From the UHGV virus genome UHGV-1353844: a stretch of 64,000 bases of DNA. One strand, 5' to 3'. The stretch is from a virus. The notes beneath the pieces were generated by a model. It was not told the DNA's origin. It did not search any database and saw only the letters and a program-made list of their open reading frames with translations. Position numbers and translations under genes: made by a program. Every line of letters starts with the position of its first letter. Position 1 is the first letter of the stretch. Below are positions 13,270-63,794 of this stretch, one piece after another.

Positions 13270-13848
13270 TTATTTCGTTGTCTTTGTTTCCGTCTTCGCG
13301 ACGACCTGACCTGATTTCTCAAGTTTCTTCTCGACAACTTTGGTAGCAATCTCCAACGACTTGTAAGCCAATGTTTTAATCGGCCACGTTGCGAATACTA
13401 CCAGTCCAAACAGCGGAAGTAAGGATACAAACAACACTTCCATGCTGTCTTTTGGAAAGTTCTGATGCGTGTCGTACGCTAAGAAGCCTGTCACGACCAC
13501 AGTGGCGAGTGCAAGCAGAACAATAATGAACTTCTGTGCACCGGCAAGTTTTGGCCACAGCGTCAACATCGTTTCTTTGCTTACTTCGTCACCTAAACTC
13601 TCTACAGCATTTGTGGCTTGCTGCTGAAAGTTTTCCGCCATCTTTCCAATGTTCTCAAGAAGCGTTGGACGTAGCTCCGACAGAATCTTTGTACCTGACC
13701 GCGTTACGTCTACAGAGACGTCGTCACCGAAGTTGTCTTTGAGAATCTTAGACAGTTCTTCGGACTGCTCTTTACTTAACTTTCTGTTTCCTGCTTGGAT
13801 AAGAATGTCAAGAATTGCGGCTGACACGTCTTGTGTTGGTTGCGACAT
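13270..13848 (-). CDS. membrane protein (2 predicted TM helices)
   Basis: Hydrophobic segments FIIVLLALATVVVTGFLAY and VLFVSLLPLFGLVVFATW; terminator 13242-13265 downstream. Confidence 0.6.
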   Translation of the reverse strand: MSQPTQDVSAAILDILIQAGNRKLSKEQSEELSKILKDNFGDDVSVDVTRSGTKILSELRPTLLENIGKMAENFQQQATNAVESLGDEVSKETMLTLWPKLAGAQKFIIVLLALATVVVTGFLAYDTHQNFPKDSMEVLFVSLLPLFGLVVFATWPIKTLAYKSLEIATKVVEKKLEKSGQVVAKTETKTTK

Positions 13849-13850
13849 CG

Positions 13851-14495
13851 CTATTTCCTCCGACGTCTTCTCCGCCGTTTTGCTGCCTTAGCAGACTTTT
13901 GTTTTGGCGGTAGGAGACTATTCAAGTTTAACAGGTTTACCCTGACAAAGATATTCCCCACCGCCACGGCATCGATACTGTGCTCATCCAACGTTGTAAT
14001 ATCAAACAACGCGTGGTCGCGATACAACTTCGTTACGGCACGAAACATATCTGTTTTGTCCGTTCCTTTCGCTTCCACACCGACGAATGATTTTACAATA
14101 ATCGGATTGAACCCGTGTAAGACTTTCTCTGGAAACACGTCCCATAACGCTCGTCTTAACATCAGCTGTAACTCTACGCCAGACTCATACGCGGAGAGTT
14201 TTGCTCGCCGCATAAACGGCGTTTCTGTTGCAACAAACGTCGGACGCGCAATCCGAAGAAACTCACGGTAGCACGCTTCGAGTTTTACTAAGCGATCGTC
14301 GCGTTTACCGACACACTCTGCAAACGCACTTGGATGTGTTGGGTCTAATACGTGCATGGTATCAGCCCACACCACTTCGGCTTGGTCGCTGCCATATTCC
14401 CAATCCAGCACCGCCATCCCGAGATGGCTCGTACCGGGGTCTATCGCCGCGATCCTGACCATTTTATCGGGAAGTCTCGGCTCAGGAATCAACAT
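13851..14495 (-). CDS. RuvC-like Holliday junction resolvase with poly-Arg C-terminal tail
   Basis: RuvC-like motifs IAAIDPGTSHLG, VATETPF, HSIDAVAVG; C-terminus KQKSAKAAKRRRRRRRK; start overlaps upstream stop (TAATG). Confidence 0.7.
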   Translation of the reverse strand: MLIPEPRLPDKMVRIAAIDPGTSHLGMAVLDWEYGSDQAEVVWADTMHVLDPTHPSAFAECVGKRDDRLVKLEACYREFLRIARPTFVATETPFMRRAKLSAYESGVELQLMLRRALWDVFPEKVLHGFNPIIVKSFVGVEAKGTDKTDMFRAVTKLYRDHALFDITTLDEHSIDAVAVGNIFVRVNLLNLNSLLPPKQKSAKAAKRRRRRRRK

Positions 14496-38822: not shown

Positions 38823-39348
38823 CTCTTTTCCAAATCTGATAATGCCAACGCGGAATATCACTTTCTGGTTTCGAGCAGTGTGTTAAGTTATAAGTCAATT
38901 TAAACACGTCACGATCGATTTCAGGGAAGAACGCATCCGCGTCCTCTACCTTAACCTCAACACGAGACAAGTAAATCTTATCCGCATAAGGCATCGCCTG
39001 TTGGTAAATCTCTGCGCCGCCAATAATAAAGATTTCTTTCGGGTAATCTTTCTCCACGACTTCTTTCTTGAGAAACTCAATAACAGACCCCATGTCACCT
39101 TTAAGGTTCAACACACCGTCGATGTCAGGAACACCGCCTTGTTTTCGTGTTAAGATAACGTGGTGACGGTTCGGTAAGGGTTTATACCCCAACGACTCCC
39201 ACGTCTTACGTCCCATCACGATAACCTTACCTGACGTAAGAGCTTTGAAGTTCTTCAAGTCATCGGGAATATGCCAAGGGAGTTTATTGTCTTTCCCTAT
39301 TTCATTATTAAGTCCCGCTGCTGCAATCAAAGATACAGTAACTGTCAT
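38812..39348 (-). CDS. folA: dihydrofolate reductase
   Basis: DHFR motifs LIAAAGLNNEIGKDNKLPW, VIVMGRKTWESLG, LPNRHHVILTR, IFIIGGAEIY; start overlaps upstream stop (ATGA). Confidence 0.85.
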   Translation of the reverse strand: MTVTVSLIAAAGLNNEIGKDNKLPWHIPDDLKNFKALTSGKVIVMGRKTWESLGYKPLPNRHHVILTRKQGGVPDIDGVLNLKGDMGSVIEFLKKEVVEKDYPKEIFIIGGAEIYQQAMPYADKIYLSRVEVKVEDADAFFPEIDRDVFKLTYNLTHCSKPESDIPRWHYQIWKRDGN

Positions 39349-39650
39349 TTCACAACTCCCATCGACTTTCTTAATTTCCGAATAAATGCTTTACGTGTAA
39401 GCTGACTGGTTTTGTAACCGTCAGCAAGATGCCAAACGGTTACTTTTCGACCGGCCGCCTCTAAATGGAGATAATTAATCTCACCTGCCCCCGATTTAAT
39501 TGGTTCGGCGAGCGGTACCATCAGCTCACCGCTCCACTCAGGTTCGTTTAGCTTAGGGATAACTAAACGTAATTCGATACGTTTAACCTGGTACTCGGTT
39601 TCACACTCTTCAAAATGTATTACGTCTACTCGGTCGGCTCTCGGTTTCAT
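39345..39650 (-). CDS. hypothetical protein (101 aa)
   Basis: ORF track; translationally coupled to DHFR gene. Confidence 0.5.
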   Translation of the reverse strand: MKPRADRVDVIHFEECETEYQVKRIELRLVIPKLNEPEWSGELMVPLAEPIKSGAGEINYLHLEAAGRKVTVWHLADGYKTSQLTRKAFIRKLRKSMGVVK

Positions 39651-42395: not shown

Positions 42396-43667
42396 TTACT
42401 TAGATTTTTCGTAAGCACCGATACCAGCACCCAGGTAACCGTTCAAACCGCTAATTACGGTGTTAGCAACATAACTAACGGCACGGTTCAGGGTCTGGTA
42501 GTTCTTAACAGACTGGTCAGCAGCTTGGCGTGCATTACGCAGACCATCCCACTTGCTTTCGTCTTTTTCGCTGTTCAGCGCGTTAGCAGCTTTCTCAGCG
42601 GCCTGTTGCAGTTTTGCAATCTCTGCATCGTAAGCACGGAAGTCTTTCAGTACAGCTTCGAAGCCTTTACCGATAGATTCCAGAGAAGAAGCAGCGCCAG
42701 CCATTTCAGAAACAGACGGAGTTTTCACGTCTTTATCGTCAGAGGCATCGCCAGTGCTCATGAATGCAACAGCGGTAAATTTGTGACCGCCAGCCAGTTC
42801 TTTAGTACCGGACTGAACGTATGCGTTACCCGGCAGAGCCAGAAGTTTGGACGCATCGCCGTTTTCAAAGTTCGGCAGGTTATGCAGTTTAGAAGCTGCT
42901 TTACCGAACAGTTCTACCGGCTGATCGCCACGCATTGCTTTGAATGCTTCGTCATCGCCTTTGGTTACAGCAGTAACAGCTTCACCAGCTTGTTTTTCCA
43001 GTGCGCTGATAGCACCTTTAGCTTTACCAGAGGTTACTTCTTTCGCGATAGCGATAGAGCCAGCTGCATCGAATTTACCTTCAATGGACAGCTTAGTAAT
43101 GAAACCACCGGAGATGGTATCATTTTTCTGTTTGCCCAGCTTGCGCAGCATTTCCTGATATTTCTTCGCACGTTTCTGTGCGGTCTTACCGACGTTGAAA
43201 TATTTCAGTTTCAGGTCTTTGATCTTCGCAATCACTTCTTTACAGAACTGAATGAAACGCTCGTAAAGACCTTTCAGGGTTTCTTTCCAGCCTTCCTGCG
43301 CAGCAGCAGTCATGCCACGGCCACGGCGATAGGATTCGCGAGCCAGTTTGGTGCGTTCCAGGTTCCAACGACGTGCGATGGATTCCTGAGCCACTTCTTG
43401 CAGGGCAACCGCTTCTTCCGGCATTTCTTCACCGTTAGCAACGGCTTCTTCCGCCTGATCGATAGCGTCTTCAGTACGCTCAGTATCGGCGGCCAGAGTT
43501 TCACCGTCGGTTTCCAGCTGTTCGAGCTGACCGTCGATAGAGGCTACGTCTGCAAGCTGGACGTCCAGGTTCTCTTCTGCCGGTTCAACGTTGCTGATAC
43601 CGTCGATTACTTCATCGGCCGCTTCCATTGATTCACGAGCGGCGCGAGTTTTTGCGAAATTTGCCAT
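42396..43667 (-). CDS. abundant virion (head) protein candidate, paralog 2 (423 aa)
   Basis: Same architecture and termini as paralog 1; AAGGAAA RBS; palindrome GGTTATATAACC upstream. Confidence 0.6.
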   Translation of the reverse strand: MANFAKTRAARESMEAADEVIDGISNVEPAEENLDVQLADVASIDGQLEQLETDGETLAADTERTEDAIDQAEEAVANGEEMPEEAVALQEVAQESIARRWNLERTKLARESYRRGRGMTAAAQEGWKETLKGLYERFIQFCKEVIAKIKDLKLKYFNVGKTAQKRAKKYQEMLRKLGKQKNDTISGGFITKLSIEGKFDAAGSIAIAKEVTSGKAKGAISALEKQAGEAVTAVTKGDDEAFKAMRGDQPVELFGKAASKLHNLPNFENGDASKLLALPGNAYVQSGTKELAGGHKFTAVAFMSTGDASDDKDVKTPSVSEMAGAASSLESIGKGFEAVLKDFRAYDAEIAKLQQAAEKAANALNSEKDESKWDGLRNARQAADQSVKNYQTLNRAVSYVANTVISGLNGYLGAGIGAYEKSK

Positions 43668-61182: not shown

Positions 61183-61755
61183 TTATACCTCGGTAACGAC
61201 TTCAGTGTCGGGTTGTTTTACTGCGGCTTCAGCTTGTTGAAGCAGTTCGTAGGCTTCTGCGAAGGTGTGACCCTGGTGCATAGCACGTTTTACAAAATCA
61301 GCGCGGCCGTTATACAGCGACAGGATTTCAATGGCAGCGCCCTGGATATCTTTGCCCAGCCACACAGCTTCGGTCTCTAACGTGGTCACGTTCATGCTTT
61401 CCACGCTAAACTCGTCTTTCACAGACGCCCAGCTGTTGTTTTCCAGCATGGTTTTTGCATTGGTTGCAACCTTATCGATCTCAATAAGTTTTGCACCCAG
61501 TTTTTCTTTCCCTTCTGCCATCAGGCCAACAAACGCAGCTTTGGCTTCGTCCAACGCTTTAATAGCAAAGGCTTTGTATTCTGGCTCCTCCAGAGCTTCC
61601 AGGACTTCGCGTTCTTTGTCGATACGCTCCGCCAGAATCTTCATCTGTTCTTCAAAGATAACCAGTAGTTTATACACTGATTTCACGCTATCGCGAAGTT
61701 CTTTTTTCGCCAGAGCACGTGGGTTATAAGCGGGTTTCTTCTTACGACGAGACAT
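61183..61755 (-). CDS. hypothetical helical protein (190 aa)
   Basis: ORF track; terminator 61784-61804 upstream of start. Confidence 0.55.
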   Translation of the reverse strand: MSRRKKKPAYNPRALAKKELRDSVKSVYKLLVIFEEQMKILAERIDKEREVLEALEEPEYKAFAIKALDEAKAAFVGLMAEGKEKLGAKLIEIDKVATNAKTMLENNSWASVKDEFSVESMNVTTLETEAVWLGKDIQGAAIEILSLYNGRADFVKRAMHQGHTFAEAYELLQQAEAAVKQPDTEVVTEV

Positions 61756-61816: not shown

Positions 61817-62200
61817 TTAATTGCTATCGTGAGGAACGGCTACCCAACTGTGCCATTTCTCAGAGTATAGTCGATAAGCCACCTTCGGGTTTTCATCGAT
61901 ATTGCCCGCAGGGTTTTCAGACCACAGCACCCAGCTGTAAAGCTCGTAGGACGAGGTATTGCGGATACTGGAGTTACGCGTAATGTAATAACATTTACCA
62001 CGTTGGAAAATCTGCATACCGGCGAAGTGTTCCGTTACCATATAGTAGTGGAACGCCACGGACATCGTTGGGTCGGTACACAGTTTATCGACGACGTTTT
62101 CGACGTCTGGGTATGCCTTTAAAACCTTTTCGAGAAAACTTGCTAAGTTCAGCCCGGCATACGGTGCTGTTGGCTCGGTCGGCTGCGGCGGTAGTAACAT
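61817..62200 (-). CDS. hypothetical protein (127 aa)
   Basis: ORF track; AAGGA RBS 5-6 nt upstream of ATG at 62200; overlaps helicase 3' end by 116 nt. Confidence 0.5.
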   Translation of the reverse strand: MLLPPQPTEPTAPYAGLNLASFLEKVLKAYPDVENVVDKLCTDPTMSVAFHYYMVTEHFAGMQIFQRGKCYYITRNSSIRNTSSYELYSWVLWSENPAGNIDENPKVAYRLYSEKWHSWVAVPHDSN

Positions 62201-63794
62201 TGGTTTTCCTTACAACATACGGTGAAGAGGCTATCTTAAACGACAACACAGAATCACTCAGCGACTTTTGACGCGCATTCAAGTAATTACAGTGTTTCCC
62301 TATCGAGAGTGAATGGAATAACCACACAACGGGATCGAGTTCACCCCAATCGTTGTGAAGTATCTTACGCGGTCGACCGGCCATCTGACGGTTTAACTGT
62401 TGGTCTTCCACAGGCGTTGTGATGTACATGTGGACCAACCCCGGTTTGTCAACCGCAGTGCCTGCTTTCCCTGGTGTTGAAATCGAGAAATCCGCTTGAA
62501 TAAAGTCGTCATACGAATCCCCCGCGTTGTATTTCGCAACCATCAGCGCGTGGAACTTATCAGACTGTGCCAGTTTCTCTCGCACGTACTCTGTAAAGAA
62601 CTCACACATCGCAACGGTTGCAAACAACACCAACACTTTCTGACCAGGTTGGTAACTCGCCAGATACGTTCGCTCGATGACGTCCCACACCATATCCGCG
62701 TAAGATAAGTGCATGTTCTCACTTATTAACTTACCTTCGAATAGCTTGTGGTTATACGGCGTCATCTTATTCGCCCACCACGCAAACCGTTTATTCTCAA
62801 TGCTGTAGTACAACGCTTTAACGTGTACAGCAGGAATAATCGGAATGAATATACGTGACTCTTGTGGGAAACGCTCTCGATACCGTTCGGCTAAAAACGC
62901 TTTTGATTCACCCGGCTGTAACGTCGCAGACATCTCAACAGACGGTGGTGGGTTGAGCATTATTCCTGCCATGTACACCAGATGGAAATGCTCATGCACC
63001 TCATCCATTGACAAAAACCCAACGCCTAAGGTGTTGTAGAAATCATCAATGTTCACTGGGTTAGTTGCGGCAGTGTTAATGTACTCTTTAAGGAATCGTT
63101 GCAACGTTACCGTCGAGATAATGATAACCTTAATCCCACGTTTGTCTAATTCGCCTGATTCCCCCATCTCTAACGCTTCGTAGATAGCCTGAACGCCTTG
63201 GATAACCAAAACATCATCTTTCGACTCACGTAAGCCCGTTGGGTCTTCAGTTAAATCAAACAACCATTTTGAGATGTACGTCGGACGGTGAATCAGTAGC
63301 GTCCTGACACCCTTACGTACCATTACTTTCATGTTCGTTTTCGACTTACCCATCCCTGTACCAATTTCAAAGATGGTTTGAAAACGATTTGGTTCGCAAG
63401 CCGTTTCAACCACAGCATTCTGGTAAAAGAAACGTGATTTCTCATCGTCCTCCACCATCTTAAAGCCGTAGTTTTCAAACTTACACCGATAAGGTGTTCC
63501 CTGCGTTAAGTAATGCTCGTAAAGCTTATACTCAATGCCAAATTCGGTGGCCGTACGATTAATAATAATGCGTAAACGCTCAGAAAAGTTCCTGTGGAAG
63601 ATAAACGAGCGGAGAGAAGGTATATGCGCGTAATACGGATCGCCACGTTCAGTGAATATACGACCGTAATGCTTGCCCATCTTAGGAGCGTGCATATGTT
63701 CTTCTGCCCACTTAAGTATCGCCGACTCTATCTGTCGGCACGGGACTTCAACCCTCACCCCCATGCTGGTAAAGGTCATGTGGAATTCGTACAT
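62085..63794 (-). CDS. SF2 DExH-box helicase with poly-basic C-terminal tail
   Basis: Walker A GTGMGKSKT, motif II MDEVHE, motif III SAT, motif VI RQMAGRPRK; C-terminus GIPRRRKRRR; strong AGAGGGGAG RBS. Confidence 0.7.
   Translation of the reverse strand: MYEFHMTFTSMGVRVEVPCRQIESAILKWAEEHMHAPKMGKHYGRIFTERGDPYYAHIPSLRSFIFHRNFSERLRIIINRTATEFGIEYKLYEHYLTQGTPYRCKFENYGFKMVEDDEKSRFFYQNAVVETACEPNRFQTIFEIGTGMGKSKTNMKVMVRKGVRTLLIHRPTYISKWLFDLTEDPTGLRESKDDVLVIQGVQAIYEALEMGESGELDKRGIKVIIISTVTLQRFLKEYINTAATNPVNIDDFYNTLGVGFLSMDEVHEHFHLVYMAGIMLNPPPSVEMSATLQPGESKAFLAERYRERFPQESRIFIPIIPAVHVKALYYSIENKRFAWWANKMTPYNHKLFEGKLISENMHLSYADMVWDVIERTYLASYQPGQKVLVLFATVAMCEFFTEYVREKLAQSDKFHALMVAKYNAGDSYDDFIQADFSISTPGKAGTAVDKPGLVHMYITTPVEDQQLNRQMAGRPRKILHNDWGELDPVVWLFHSLSIGKHCNYLNARQKSLSDSVLSFKIASSPYVVRKTNVTTAAADRANSTVCRAELSKFSRKGFKGIPRRRKRRR

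Follow-up and report, generated by a model that had tools for sequence, protein, structure and literature searches.

Two DNA-processing enzymes encoded in the 64,000-nucleotide stretch of viral DNA analyzed here (the window; UHGV virus genome UHGV-1353844), a RuvC-like resolvase of Holliday junctions and a helicase, both end in a run of arginines and lysines, which raises the question of where these tails came from and what they do for the phage. A sequence-only reading of the window had offered two possibilities, a nucleic-acid clamp or a localization signal, the latter for example into the nucleus-like compartment of a nucleus-forming jumbo phage.

The two tailed enzymes and their phage

The resolvase reading frame ends in KQKSAKAAKRRRRRRRK (in longer stretches, LLPPKQKSAKAAKRRRRRRRK and NLNSLLPPKQKSAKAAKRRRRRRRK) and the helicase reading frame in IPRRRKRRR (in a longer stretch, SKFSRKGFKGIPRRRKRRR), so that both the poly-arginine tail first noticed on the resolvase and the similar one noticed on the helicase are real, with net charges over the last 15 residues of +11 and +10, respectively. 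The next best value among the 71 window ORFs, which were called mechanically as a greedy, non-overlapping set, was +6. The same measure applied to the whole 246-kb genome of phage Asesino, assembled and with 316 ORFs called mechanically, singled out the orthologues gp101 (+10) and gp53 (+9), with all others at +6 or below. The resolvase and the helicase thus carry the only strongly polybasic C-termini in the window (~70 ORFs) and, as orthologues, in Asesino. With K + R accounting for ~11-12% of residues, at least 10 of them in 15 positions are expected at a rate of ~1e-6 per protein by our own estimate, and two such C-termini are therefore not attributable to chance. The C-terminal charge scan found no basic tail on the window DnaB-like helicase, DNA polymerase parts, RNAP beta, or DprA-like protein, nor, across the 316 ORFs of Asesino, on UvsX gp238 or nvRNAP gp040. 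Obligate co-occurrence of the two tails was rejected, as the Vibrio phage pVp-JHP1101 carries a tailed RuvC and a tail-less helicase.

At ~74% nucleotide identity, Asesino, phiEaH2, and SPN3US are the closest named relatives of the window, and its PHROG matches comprise chimallivirus core genes, including a split RNAP beta, a phiKZ-type major head protein, a DnaB-like helicase, and a DNA polymerase. By sequence, the window is assigned to an SPN3US/Asesino-type chimallivirus of the clade without PhuZ. The earlier guess at a nucleus-forming jumbo phage is borne out by these relatives, as Asesino has been demonstrated experimentally to build a chimallin nucleus and belongs to a clade, termed the 'phuzzywuzzyvirus' clade, from all members of which PhuZ is missing (PMC11724907). 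Asesino gp039, its orthologue of ChmA, maps at ~16.5 kb, beyond the Asesino region that is homologous to the window.

Table 1. Features of the two tailed genes and of the genes that follow them (window coordinates)
Feature	Position	Strand	Basis or remark
Downstream gene of RuvC, predicted membrane protein, 192 aa	13270..13848	-	PHROG 8722; ATG at 13848
RuvC-like Holliday-junction resolvase, 214 aa	13851..14495	-	PHROG 159, fold, motifs
Catalytic core with RNase-H-like fold, residues 1 to ~190	13926..14495	-	pLDDT; tail-less orthologues end there
Disordered C-terminal extension of RuvC (predicted), residues 191-214	13854..13925	-	low pLDDT, orthologue alignment
K206-K214 run KRRRRRRRK	13854..13880	-	end of extension
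GGAGGAAA, Shine-Dalgarno-like site in last tail codons	13854..13861	-	cgg agg aaa tag cg ATG
Conserved small protein downstream of helicase, 127 aa, MLLPPQPTEPTAPYAGLNLASFLEKVLKAYPDVENVVDKL	61817..62200	-	PHROG 9835
SF2 (XPB/Rad25-like) helicase, 569 aa	62085..63794	-	PHROG 16, motifs, model
116-nt dual-coding overlap	62085..62200	-	helicase tail frame and first 38 codons of downstream gene
Disordered helicase extension (predicted), residues 531-569, TNVTTAAADRANSTVCRAELSKFSRKGFKGIPRRRKRRR	62088..62204	-	low pLDDT; lacking in tail-less orthologues
RRRKRRR end of helicase	62088..62108	-	sequence
TAAGGAAAA, Shine-Dalgarno site of 127-aa gene (ATG at 62200)	62204..62212	-	sequence

The 214-aa protein is, on its model and motifs, a RuvC-fold Holliday-junction resolvase with predicted activity, in keeping with the identity first given to it. 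It matches PHROG 159 ('RuvC-like Holliday junction resolvase') at E 8e-39, and the best 12 Foldseek matches of its AF2 model (pLDDT 87.6) in the PDB are all bacterial RuvC (E 8.5e-10 to 4.7e-8). The sequence match to T. thermophilus RuvC is weak (E 0.004), with D19 and E91 aligning to the motifs of that protein. The full tetrad of D19, E91, H172, and D175 is invariant in 33 orthologues and provides the equivalents of Asp7, Glu66-70, His/Asp139-143, and Asp142-146 of the RuvC family. Pfam returned zero matches for either the resolvase or the helicase at E ≤ 0.1. Residues 1-190 of the model lie mostly at pLDDT 86-98 per 10-residue block, with three blocks at 70-80, and the final helix spans residues 171-188. 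The phage resolvase shares the RNase-H-like fold (TM-target ~0.75) and the positions of the catalytic Asp/Glu/His/Asp residues with the bacterial RuvC proteins of E. coli (1HJR), T. thermophilus (4LD0), and D. radiodurans (7W8D), whereas identity is only ~20% and the phage protein adds a polycationic tail of ~24 residues that is predicted to be disordered. A longer C-terminal tail is present in the RuvC of D. radiodurans as well, though it is not called polybasic (PMC9228767), and, unlike bacterial RuvC, the resolvases of these phages come without a RuvAB partner (PMC7824862). Asesino gp101, phiKZ gp140, and PhiPA3 gp159 are orthologues; the gene sits in the late/structural module, and the RuvC orthologues of other Chimalliviridae likewise adjoin virion structural genes. 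Its task is probably to debranch phage DNA that has been replicated.

The second enzyme, called a helicase in the sequence-only reading, is a helicase of SF2 on the strength of its match to PHROG 16 (E 6e-51), the invariant Walker A (G147/G149/K150) and DExH (D264/E265/H267) residues, and ResIII/DEAD matches in 14 of 22 homologues. Foldseek searches with the AF2 model (pLDDT 86.8) gave XPB II, TFIIH XPB/Ssl2, and T4 UvsW as the top matches, each at E ~1e-13 and with a TM score of just 0.26-0.51; a plain sequence search of the PDB returned nothing, and a profile search returned a weak XPB match (E 0.25). Its orthologues include Asesino gp53, PhiPA3 gp068, and phiKZ gp075, and the gene follows the nvRNAP beta' genes in every relative examined. 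Iyer et al. described a Rad25-related, RNAP-linked helicase in group 1 (phiKZ-like) jumbo phages and proposed it as a partner of RNAP (PMC7824862). The window helicase probably belongs to this same Rad25/XPB family and occupies the same nvRNAP beta'-adjacent position, from which the window clade departs by adding an extension of ~39 residues, predicted to be disordered, with a poly-Arg end. The notion that a resolvase and a branch-migration helicase form a pair sharing a tail is weakened by this Rad25/XPB-like, nvRNAP-adjacent, and RNAP-linked (PMC7824862) character of the helicase.

The RuvC tail: anatomy and occurrence

The extension of the resolvase is built from a conserved hinge, LNSLLPP (LLNLNSLLPP), a K/P/A/G-rich linker, and a run of 7-12 consecutive Lys/Arg. 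The last three 10-residue blocks of the model fall to pLDDT 73, 56, and 50, with values of 50-56 starting at about residue 195, and contain no secondary structure; with low pLDDT read as a proxy for disorder, both this tail and that of the helicase are predicted to be disordered. Alignment of orthologues, which had been named as a way of checking the tail, found it in all 48 full-length orthologues that the protein search recovered at identities as low as ~40%, with a net charge of +8 to +12 over the last 15 residues, the exceptions to this count being truncated or frameshifted entries only. The residues, length, and order of the tail vary among these proteins and its charge and composition are kept, a pattern of selection on charge and not on exact sequence.

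The tail codons (aaa cgg cgg aga aga cgt cgg agg aaa tag) carry features of their own at the nucleic-acid level. Six of the seven tail arginines are specified by the rare codons CGG, AGA, and AGG, which account for 14.5% of usage across 14 window genes, and the last codons contain a Shine-Dalgarno-like site placed immediately ahead of a predicted membrane protein gene that starts 2 nt past the RuvC stop. This arrangement, CGT CGG AGG AAA TAG CG ATG, is identical in Asesino. The Shine-Dalgarno site nevertheless accounts for at most the last 2-3 tail residues, and the proposal that the whole tail is a mere ribosome-binding site was rejected on that ground; the tails of the Vibrio phages are AAA/AAG-rich and those of other relatives are variable. 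The tail codons may add translational coupling or throttling of the next gene.

Among 147 representatives of clusters at 50% identity, strong RuvC tails occur mainly among the closest relatives. In a neighbor-joining tree of RuvC cores from which the tails had been cut off, a tree without bootstrap values, the window resolvase falls in a clade of 23 leaves, 21 of them with strong tails and the other two with weaker basic tails, and the Vibrio phage pVa-21 lies inside this clade. PhiPA3, 201phi2-1, EL, Noxifer, Moabite, Ea35-70, Miami, RP12, MJ359, PhiEaH1, PDCC-1, and SNUABM_54 lie outside it, and in 12 of 13 named chimallivirus orthologues of other genera the tail is missing, the proteins stopping soon past the catalytic helix. 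This applies to well-studied relatives too: phiKZ gp140, PhiPA3 gp159, 201phi2-1 gp225, and EL gp108 are products of the orthologous gene in the same neighborhood as the window RuvC, yet at 174-201 aa they break off soon past the DEHxxDA helix, without a basic tail. The tailed set comes from hosts (Erwinia, Salmonella, Proteus, Escherichia, Cronobacter, and Vibrio) that agree by genus with the membership published for the PhuZ-less clade, and pVa-21 is listed in a table of the paper that describes that clade (PMC11724907). On this distribution the RuvC tail looks like a derived character of the PhuZ-less clade, with a handful of sporadic, independent gains outside it.

The helicase tail and the gene it overlaps

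The fold of the helicase closes with a strand at residues 518-528, and residues 537-569 of the model have pLDDT < 50. A basic tail is present in the full-length orthologues found within the tailed group, down to ~37-42% identity, and is missing from four orthologues, PhiPA3 gp068, RAY gp250, EL gp040, and the helicase of pVp-JHP1101. In the window, the tail is encoded on top of another gene, an arrangement that the sequence-only reading had missed; the ATG of this gene precedes the helicase stop by 116 nt. The product of this gene, a protein of 127 aa, is matched by PHROG 9835 at E 1.7e-60 over residues 8-125, and its N-terminus is homologous to the products of non-overlapping genes in pVp-JHP1101 and in a related contig, L031 (FLEKVLKAYPDVENVVDKL vs FLHFVLKAYPSVEDVIDKI). 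The helicases of these two end in SFKILNSKFIIK or SNYII, with the start of the small conserved gene following after 7-9 nt. In the window, an out-of-frame TAA occurs 9 nt before the ATG at 62200, at the site of the in-frame helicase stop of L031, which suggests that this TAA is a fossil helicase stop and that a small indel arose just upstream. A frame change just ahead of the ancestral stop would have led the helicase to read 38 codons of its neighbor.

An overlap of 113-116 nt is kept in nine divergent lineages, and the helicase frame is open in all nine, whereas several stops close that frame in the tail-less relatives. Each helicase codon combines one downstream codon's third base with the first two bases of the codon after it, so that GAC GTC GAA AAC GTC GTC GAT AAA (DVENVVDK) in the downstream gene is read as AGA CGT CGA AAA CGT CGT CGA TAA (RRRKRRR*) in the helicase. 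Because of this frame offset, Arg in the helicase requires that synonymous positions in the downstream gene carry C or A, and the choice made at these positions can be compared with expectation. For each lineage, we resampled the synonymous codons 20,000 times according to local usage while holding the downstream protein fixed. The last 10 residues of the helicase frame are then expected to contain 1.4-3.4 K/R (2.2-3.4 in eight of the nine lineages), as against observed counts of 4-7 over all nine and of 5-7 in the strongest seven. An open frame combined with a K/R count no lower than that observed has a joint probability of ≤0.0003 in five lineages and ≤0.03 in three more, with the remaining one not significant, these nine lineages being related to one another and not independent. 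Mean pairwise identity over the overlap is 58% in the downstream frame and 26% in the helicase frame; the downstream frame keeps its sequence and the helicase frame keeps its composition only. The synonymous sites of the downstream gene are tuned toward Arg/Lys in the helicase frame and the tail is under selection, and the synonymous-codon randomization rejects the explanation of the helicase tail as a passive result of the overlap.

In one more distant relative, contig L030, the helicase has a K/N-rich tail free of overprinting, and this indicates a convergent gain. On these gene comparisons, the origin of the helicase tail is separate from that of the RuvC tail. The arrangement has the marks of overprinted viral genes, in that 113-116 nt are used in two frames and the newer frame is compositionally biased and predicted to be disordered. 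It differs from them in that overprinting here extends the C-terminus of an existing enzyme, with selection for Arg/Lys, rather than making a new gene.

What the tails may do

Composition, predicted disorder, and conservation of charge lead us to propose that the tails serve as sequence-independent electrostatic tethers to DNA or to another polyanion, a reading to which we give a probability of about one half. The simplest polyanion target would be the phage's own DNA, and such a tether would be expected to raise the DNA affinity and the residence time of both enzymes in a replication compartment packed with DNA. A generic role of this kind fits best because the resolvase, which would act in junction resolution and is encoded in the late module, and the RNAP-associated helicase belong to different pathways. 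On the other side, the orthologues in other chimallivirus clades work without a tail, which is therefore dispensable for catalysis. Lys/Arg-rich disordered tails are familiar from DNA-binding proteins, among them histone H1-like proteins and the mycobacterial HU, Ku, and topoisomerase I. By analogy, both these tails and classical eukaryotic nuclear localization signals resemble the phage extensions in being short and disordered and in keeping charge over sequence; to our knowledge bacteria have no importin system, unlike the setting in which the eukaryotic signals operate. Electrostatic tethering has two awkward corollaries: a generic need for it in the nucleus leaves its restriction to two enzymes unexplained, and a polycation would bind host DNA and RNA too, in the cytoplasm before import.

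The nucleic-acid clamp of the sequence-only reading would agree with the evidence, whereas its localization signal fares less well. In a clade-specific version, the tails would be targeting, import, or retention signals that dock on the negative chimallin shell or the import machinery, or that hold the enzyme inside, and we rate this as unlikely to improbable. The genome does come from a nucleus-forming lineage, both enzymes with a tail work on DNA and would be expected in the nucleus, a negative charge has been ascribed to the shell (PMC12908238; PMC13282480), import specificity varies among chimallivirus species (PMC12908238), and the distribution of the RuvC tail coincides with the PhuZ-less clade, with the same host genera and pVa-21 included (PMC11724907). 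Against this stand UvsX gp238 and nvRNAP gp040 of Asesino, which are demonstrated nuclear proteins (PMC11724907) and have no basic tail, the absence of tails from the orthologues in PhiPA3, 201phi2-1, EL, an Ea35-70/RAY-type phage, and other nucleus formers, and the combination of a tailed RuvC with a tail-less helicase in pVp-JHP1101. Bioinformatic searches have moreover yielded no conserved signal sequences, and nuclear import is described as using folded surface patches, recognized on the cargo via PicA/Imp1, and not terminal signals (PMC11087766; PMC12908238; PMC13282480). Because the Asesino nuclear proteins are tail-less and this published work finds no terminal signal, a general nucleus-localization signal is disfavored. 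It is improbable, in the most specific form of the idea, that the tails of the PhuZ-less clade constitute a linear, transferable element that docks the resolvase and the helicase on the shell or import site or traps them on DNA; were this true, a terminal sorting signal would have been described for a phage nucleus for the first time, and in one case it would have arisen by the overprinting of a neighbor gene.

Electrostatics could also operate between proteins. Acidic-tail/basic-patch contacts are known from the T7 replisome, and the tails might dock on an acidic partner, for which a poly-acidic tail like that on the DNA polymerase, a protein of SSB-like type, the portal/terminase, and ChmB are candidates; we regard this as unlikely. 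The Asesino DNA polymerase gp35 ends in NDEREDEDEDEDEGGEE, at a net charge of -11 the most acidic C-terminus in that genome, and this acidic tail is conserved in the closest relatives (P0328-P0342). Phobos- and Derbicus-like phages and contig 111454, however, have no acidic tail and keep both basic tails, and the gene for gp35 lies outside the window; with a distribution narrower than that of the basic tails, the poly-acidic polymerase tail is unsupported as an obligate partner. It is quite improbable that the tails are functionless by-products of constraints on the nucleic acid, namely Shine-Dalgarno and rare-codon throttling for RuvC and passive read-through for the helicase. The GGAGGAAA site 2 nt ahead of an ATG and identical in Asesino, the rare codons of six of seven tail arginines, and the placement of the helicase tail wholly within another gene whose frame is the better conserved (58% vs 26%) would all be in its favor. 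It is opposed by the reach of the Shine-Dalgarno site, which covers at most the last 2-3 codons; by RuvC tails that down to 40% identity stay at +8 to +12 even though their residues, lengths, and codons differ, the AAA/AAG-rich Vibrio tails included; by K/R and an open helicase frame far from what the downstream protein would lead one to expect in the randomization; and by L030, which gained a basic tail even without the overlap. Very improbable, finally, is a function as arginine-rich RNA-binding motifs like those of lambda N and HIV Tat, tethering the enzymes to nascent transcripts or R-loops, which the composition of the tails and the genomic linkage of the helicase to nvRNAP would accommodate, but for which the tails offer no conserved sequence pattern beyond charge and the Holliday-junction resolvase no rationale.

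Both proteins are known chimallivirus core genes. Literature searches on RuvC or Holliday-junction resolvases together with the phage nucleus or chimallin turned up no work on this protein, and those on nuclear localization signals in phage nuclei found just the work on GFPmut1 surface residues; the literature searched contains no description of the tails, of their confinement to the PhuZ-less clade, of their presence on only two proteins, or of the way in which the helicase tail arose by overprinting. For annotation, the locus carries a warning, in that the gene downstream of the helicase is often missed or truncated. Current work sees no terminal signal for the sorting of proteins into the phage nucleus or their retention there, and Asesino in Erwinia amylovora, for which GFP-fusion plasmids exist, is a tractable model at hand. 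Even if the tails do no more than tether the enzymes to DNA, that of the helicase is a compact case of selection on an overprinted frame. For the family, they amount to a natural experiment in which one clade, about one quarter of the known chimalliviruses, added a disordered polycation to two DNA enzymes, reaching the same kind of tail by two independent genetic routes, while its sister clades manage without.

Charged termini beyond the resolvase and helicase tails

The gp35 DNA polymerase of the Erwinia phage Asesino, whose orthologue lies outside the window, ends in the most acidic C-terminus of the Asesino genome, and this type of polymerase tail is kept only in the closest relatives (≥72% identity), being absent in Phobos- and Derbicus-like phages even though the basic tails are present there. 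An acidic tail similar to that of the virion structural protein in the window is found in its Asesino orthologue, gp97. On the basic side, the K/R-rich N-terminus of the PHROG 8045 protein recurs in CR5, Asesino and contigs L024-L029; we note this as a third conserved polybasic terminus, albeit an N-terminal one. By basic charge, the C-terminus of the PHROG 9893 ORF ranks third in the window.

Features discussed here, with net charges of C-termini
Feature	Location	Strand	Remarks
gp35 DNA polymerase	Asesino L014:12216-14501		C-terminus ...NDEREDEDEDEDEGGEE, net -11
Virion structural protein, 905 aa	18105..20822	(+)	acidic low-complexity C-terminal tail ...STEGTDETDTGADDNTDETL, net -7
101-aa ORF, PHROG 9893 (unknown function)	39345..39650	(-)	C-terminus RKAFIRKLRKSMGVVK, moderately basic (net +6)
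Tandem paralogues, 420 and 423 aa	41053..42315 and 42396..43667	(-)	common start MANF.K, common end ...AYEKSK
190-aa protein, PHROG 8045 (unknown function)	61183..61755	(-)	two genes downstream of helicase; basic N-terminus MSRRKKKPAYNPRALAKK
Helicase tail/small-gene overlap	62085..62200	(-)	same annotation problem in loci L024, L026, L028, L029

Annotation of the helicase and its overlapping neighbor

Where the small gene 3' of the helicase overlaps the helicase tail, gene callers skipped it or began it too late. It was left uncalled in four contigs (L024, L026, L028 and L029) and shortened in L025 and L027, while the annotated start of Asesino gp54 is an internal ATG, which gives an overlap of 83 nt rather than 113 nt. 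Many helicase orthologues are ~910 aa long and contain intein/homing-endonuclease domains (PF05203, PF05204, PF14528), among them the proteins P0106, P0107, P0121, P0124-P0128, P0132, P0142 and others; the window copy (569 aa) lacks an intein.

Head protein paralogues and relatives in Salmonella assemblies

The tandem paralogues are the counterparts of Asesino gp70 and gp71, two 'internal head protein' genes. Contigs of 50-244 kb filed under Salmonella enterica encode near-identical proteins (92-99%; P0002, P0061 and many others), deposited there as 'hypothetical proteins', and because of these deposits we infer that phages of the window type are carried along in many Salmonella isolate assemblies. 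Persistent virulent phages are the topic of a preprint (10.1101/2024.12.31.630880).

Rare arginine codons in the RuvC tail

Within the polybasic tail of the RuvC-like resolvase (13857..13877, (-)), arginine is encoded seven times, six of them by rare codons (three CGG, two AGA and one AGG); in 14 window genes, 63% of the arginines are specified by CGT. These rare codons could make ribosomes pause, or could hold expression back, directly before the start of the next gene.
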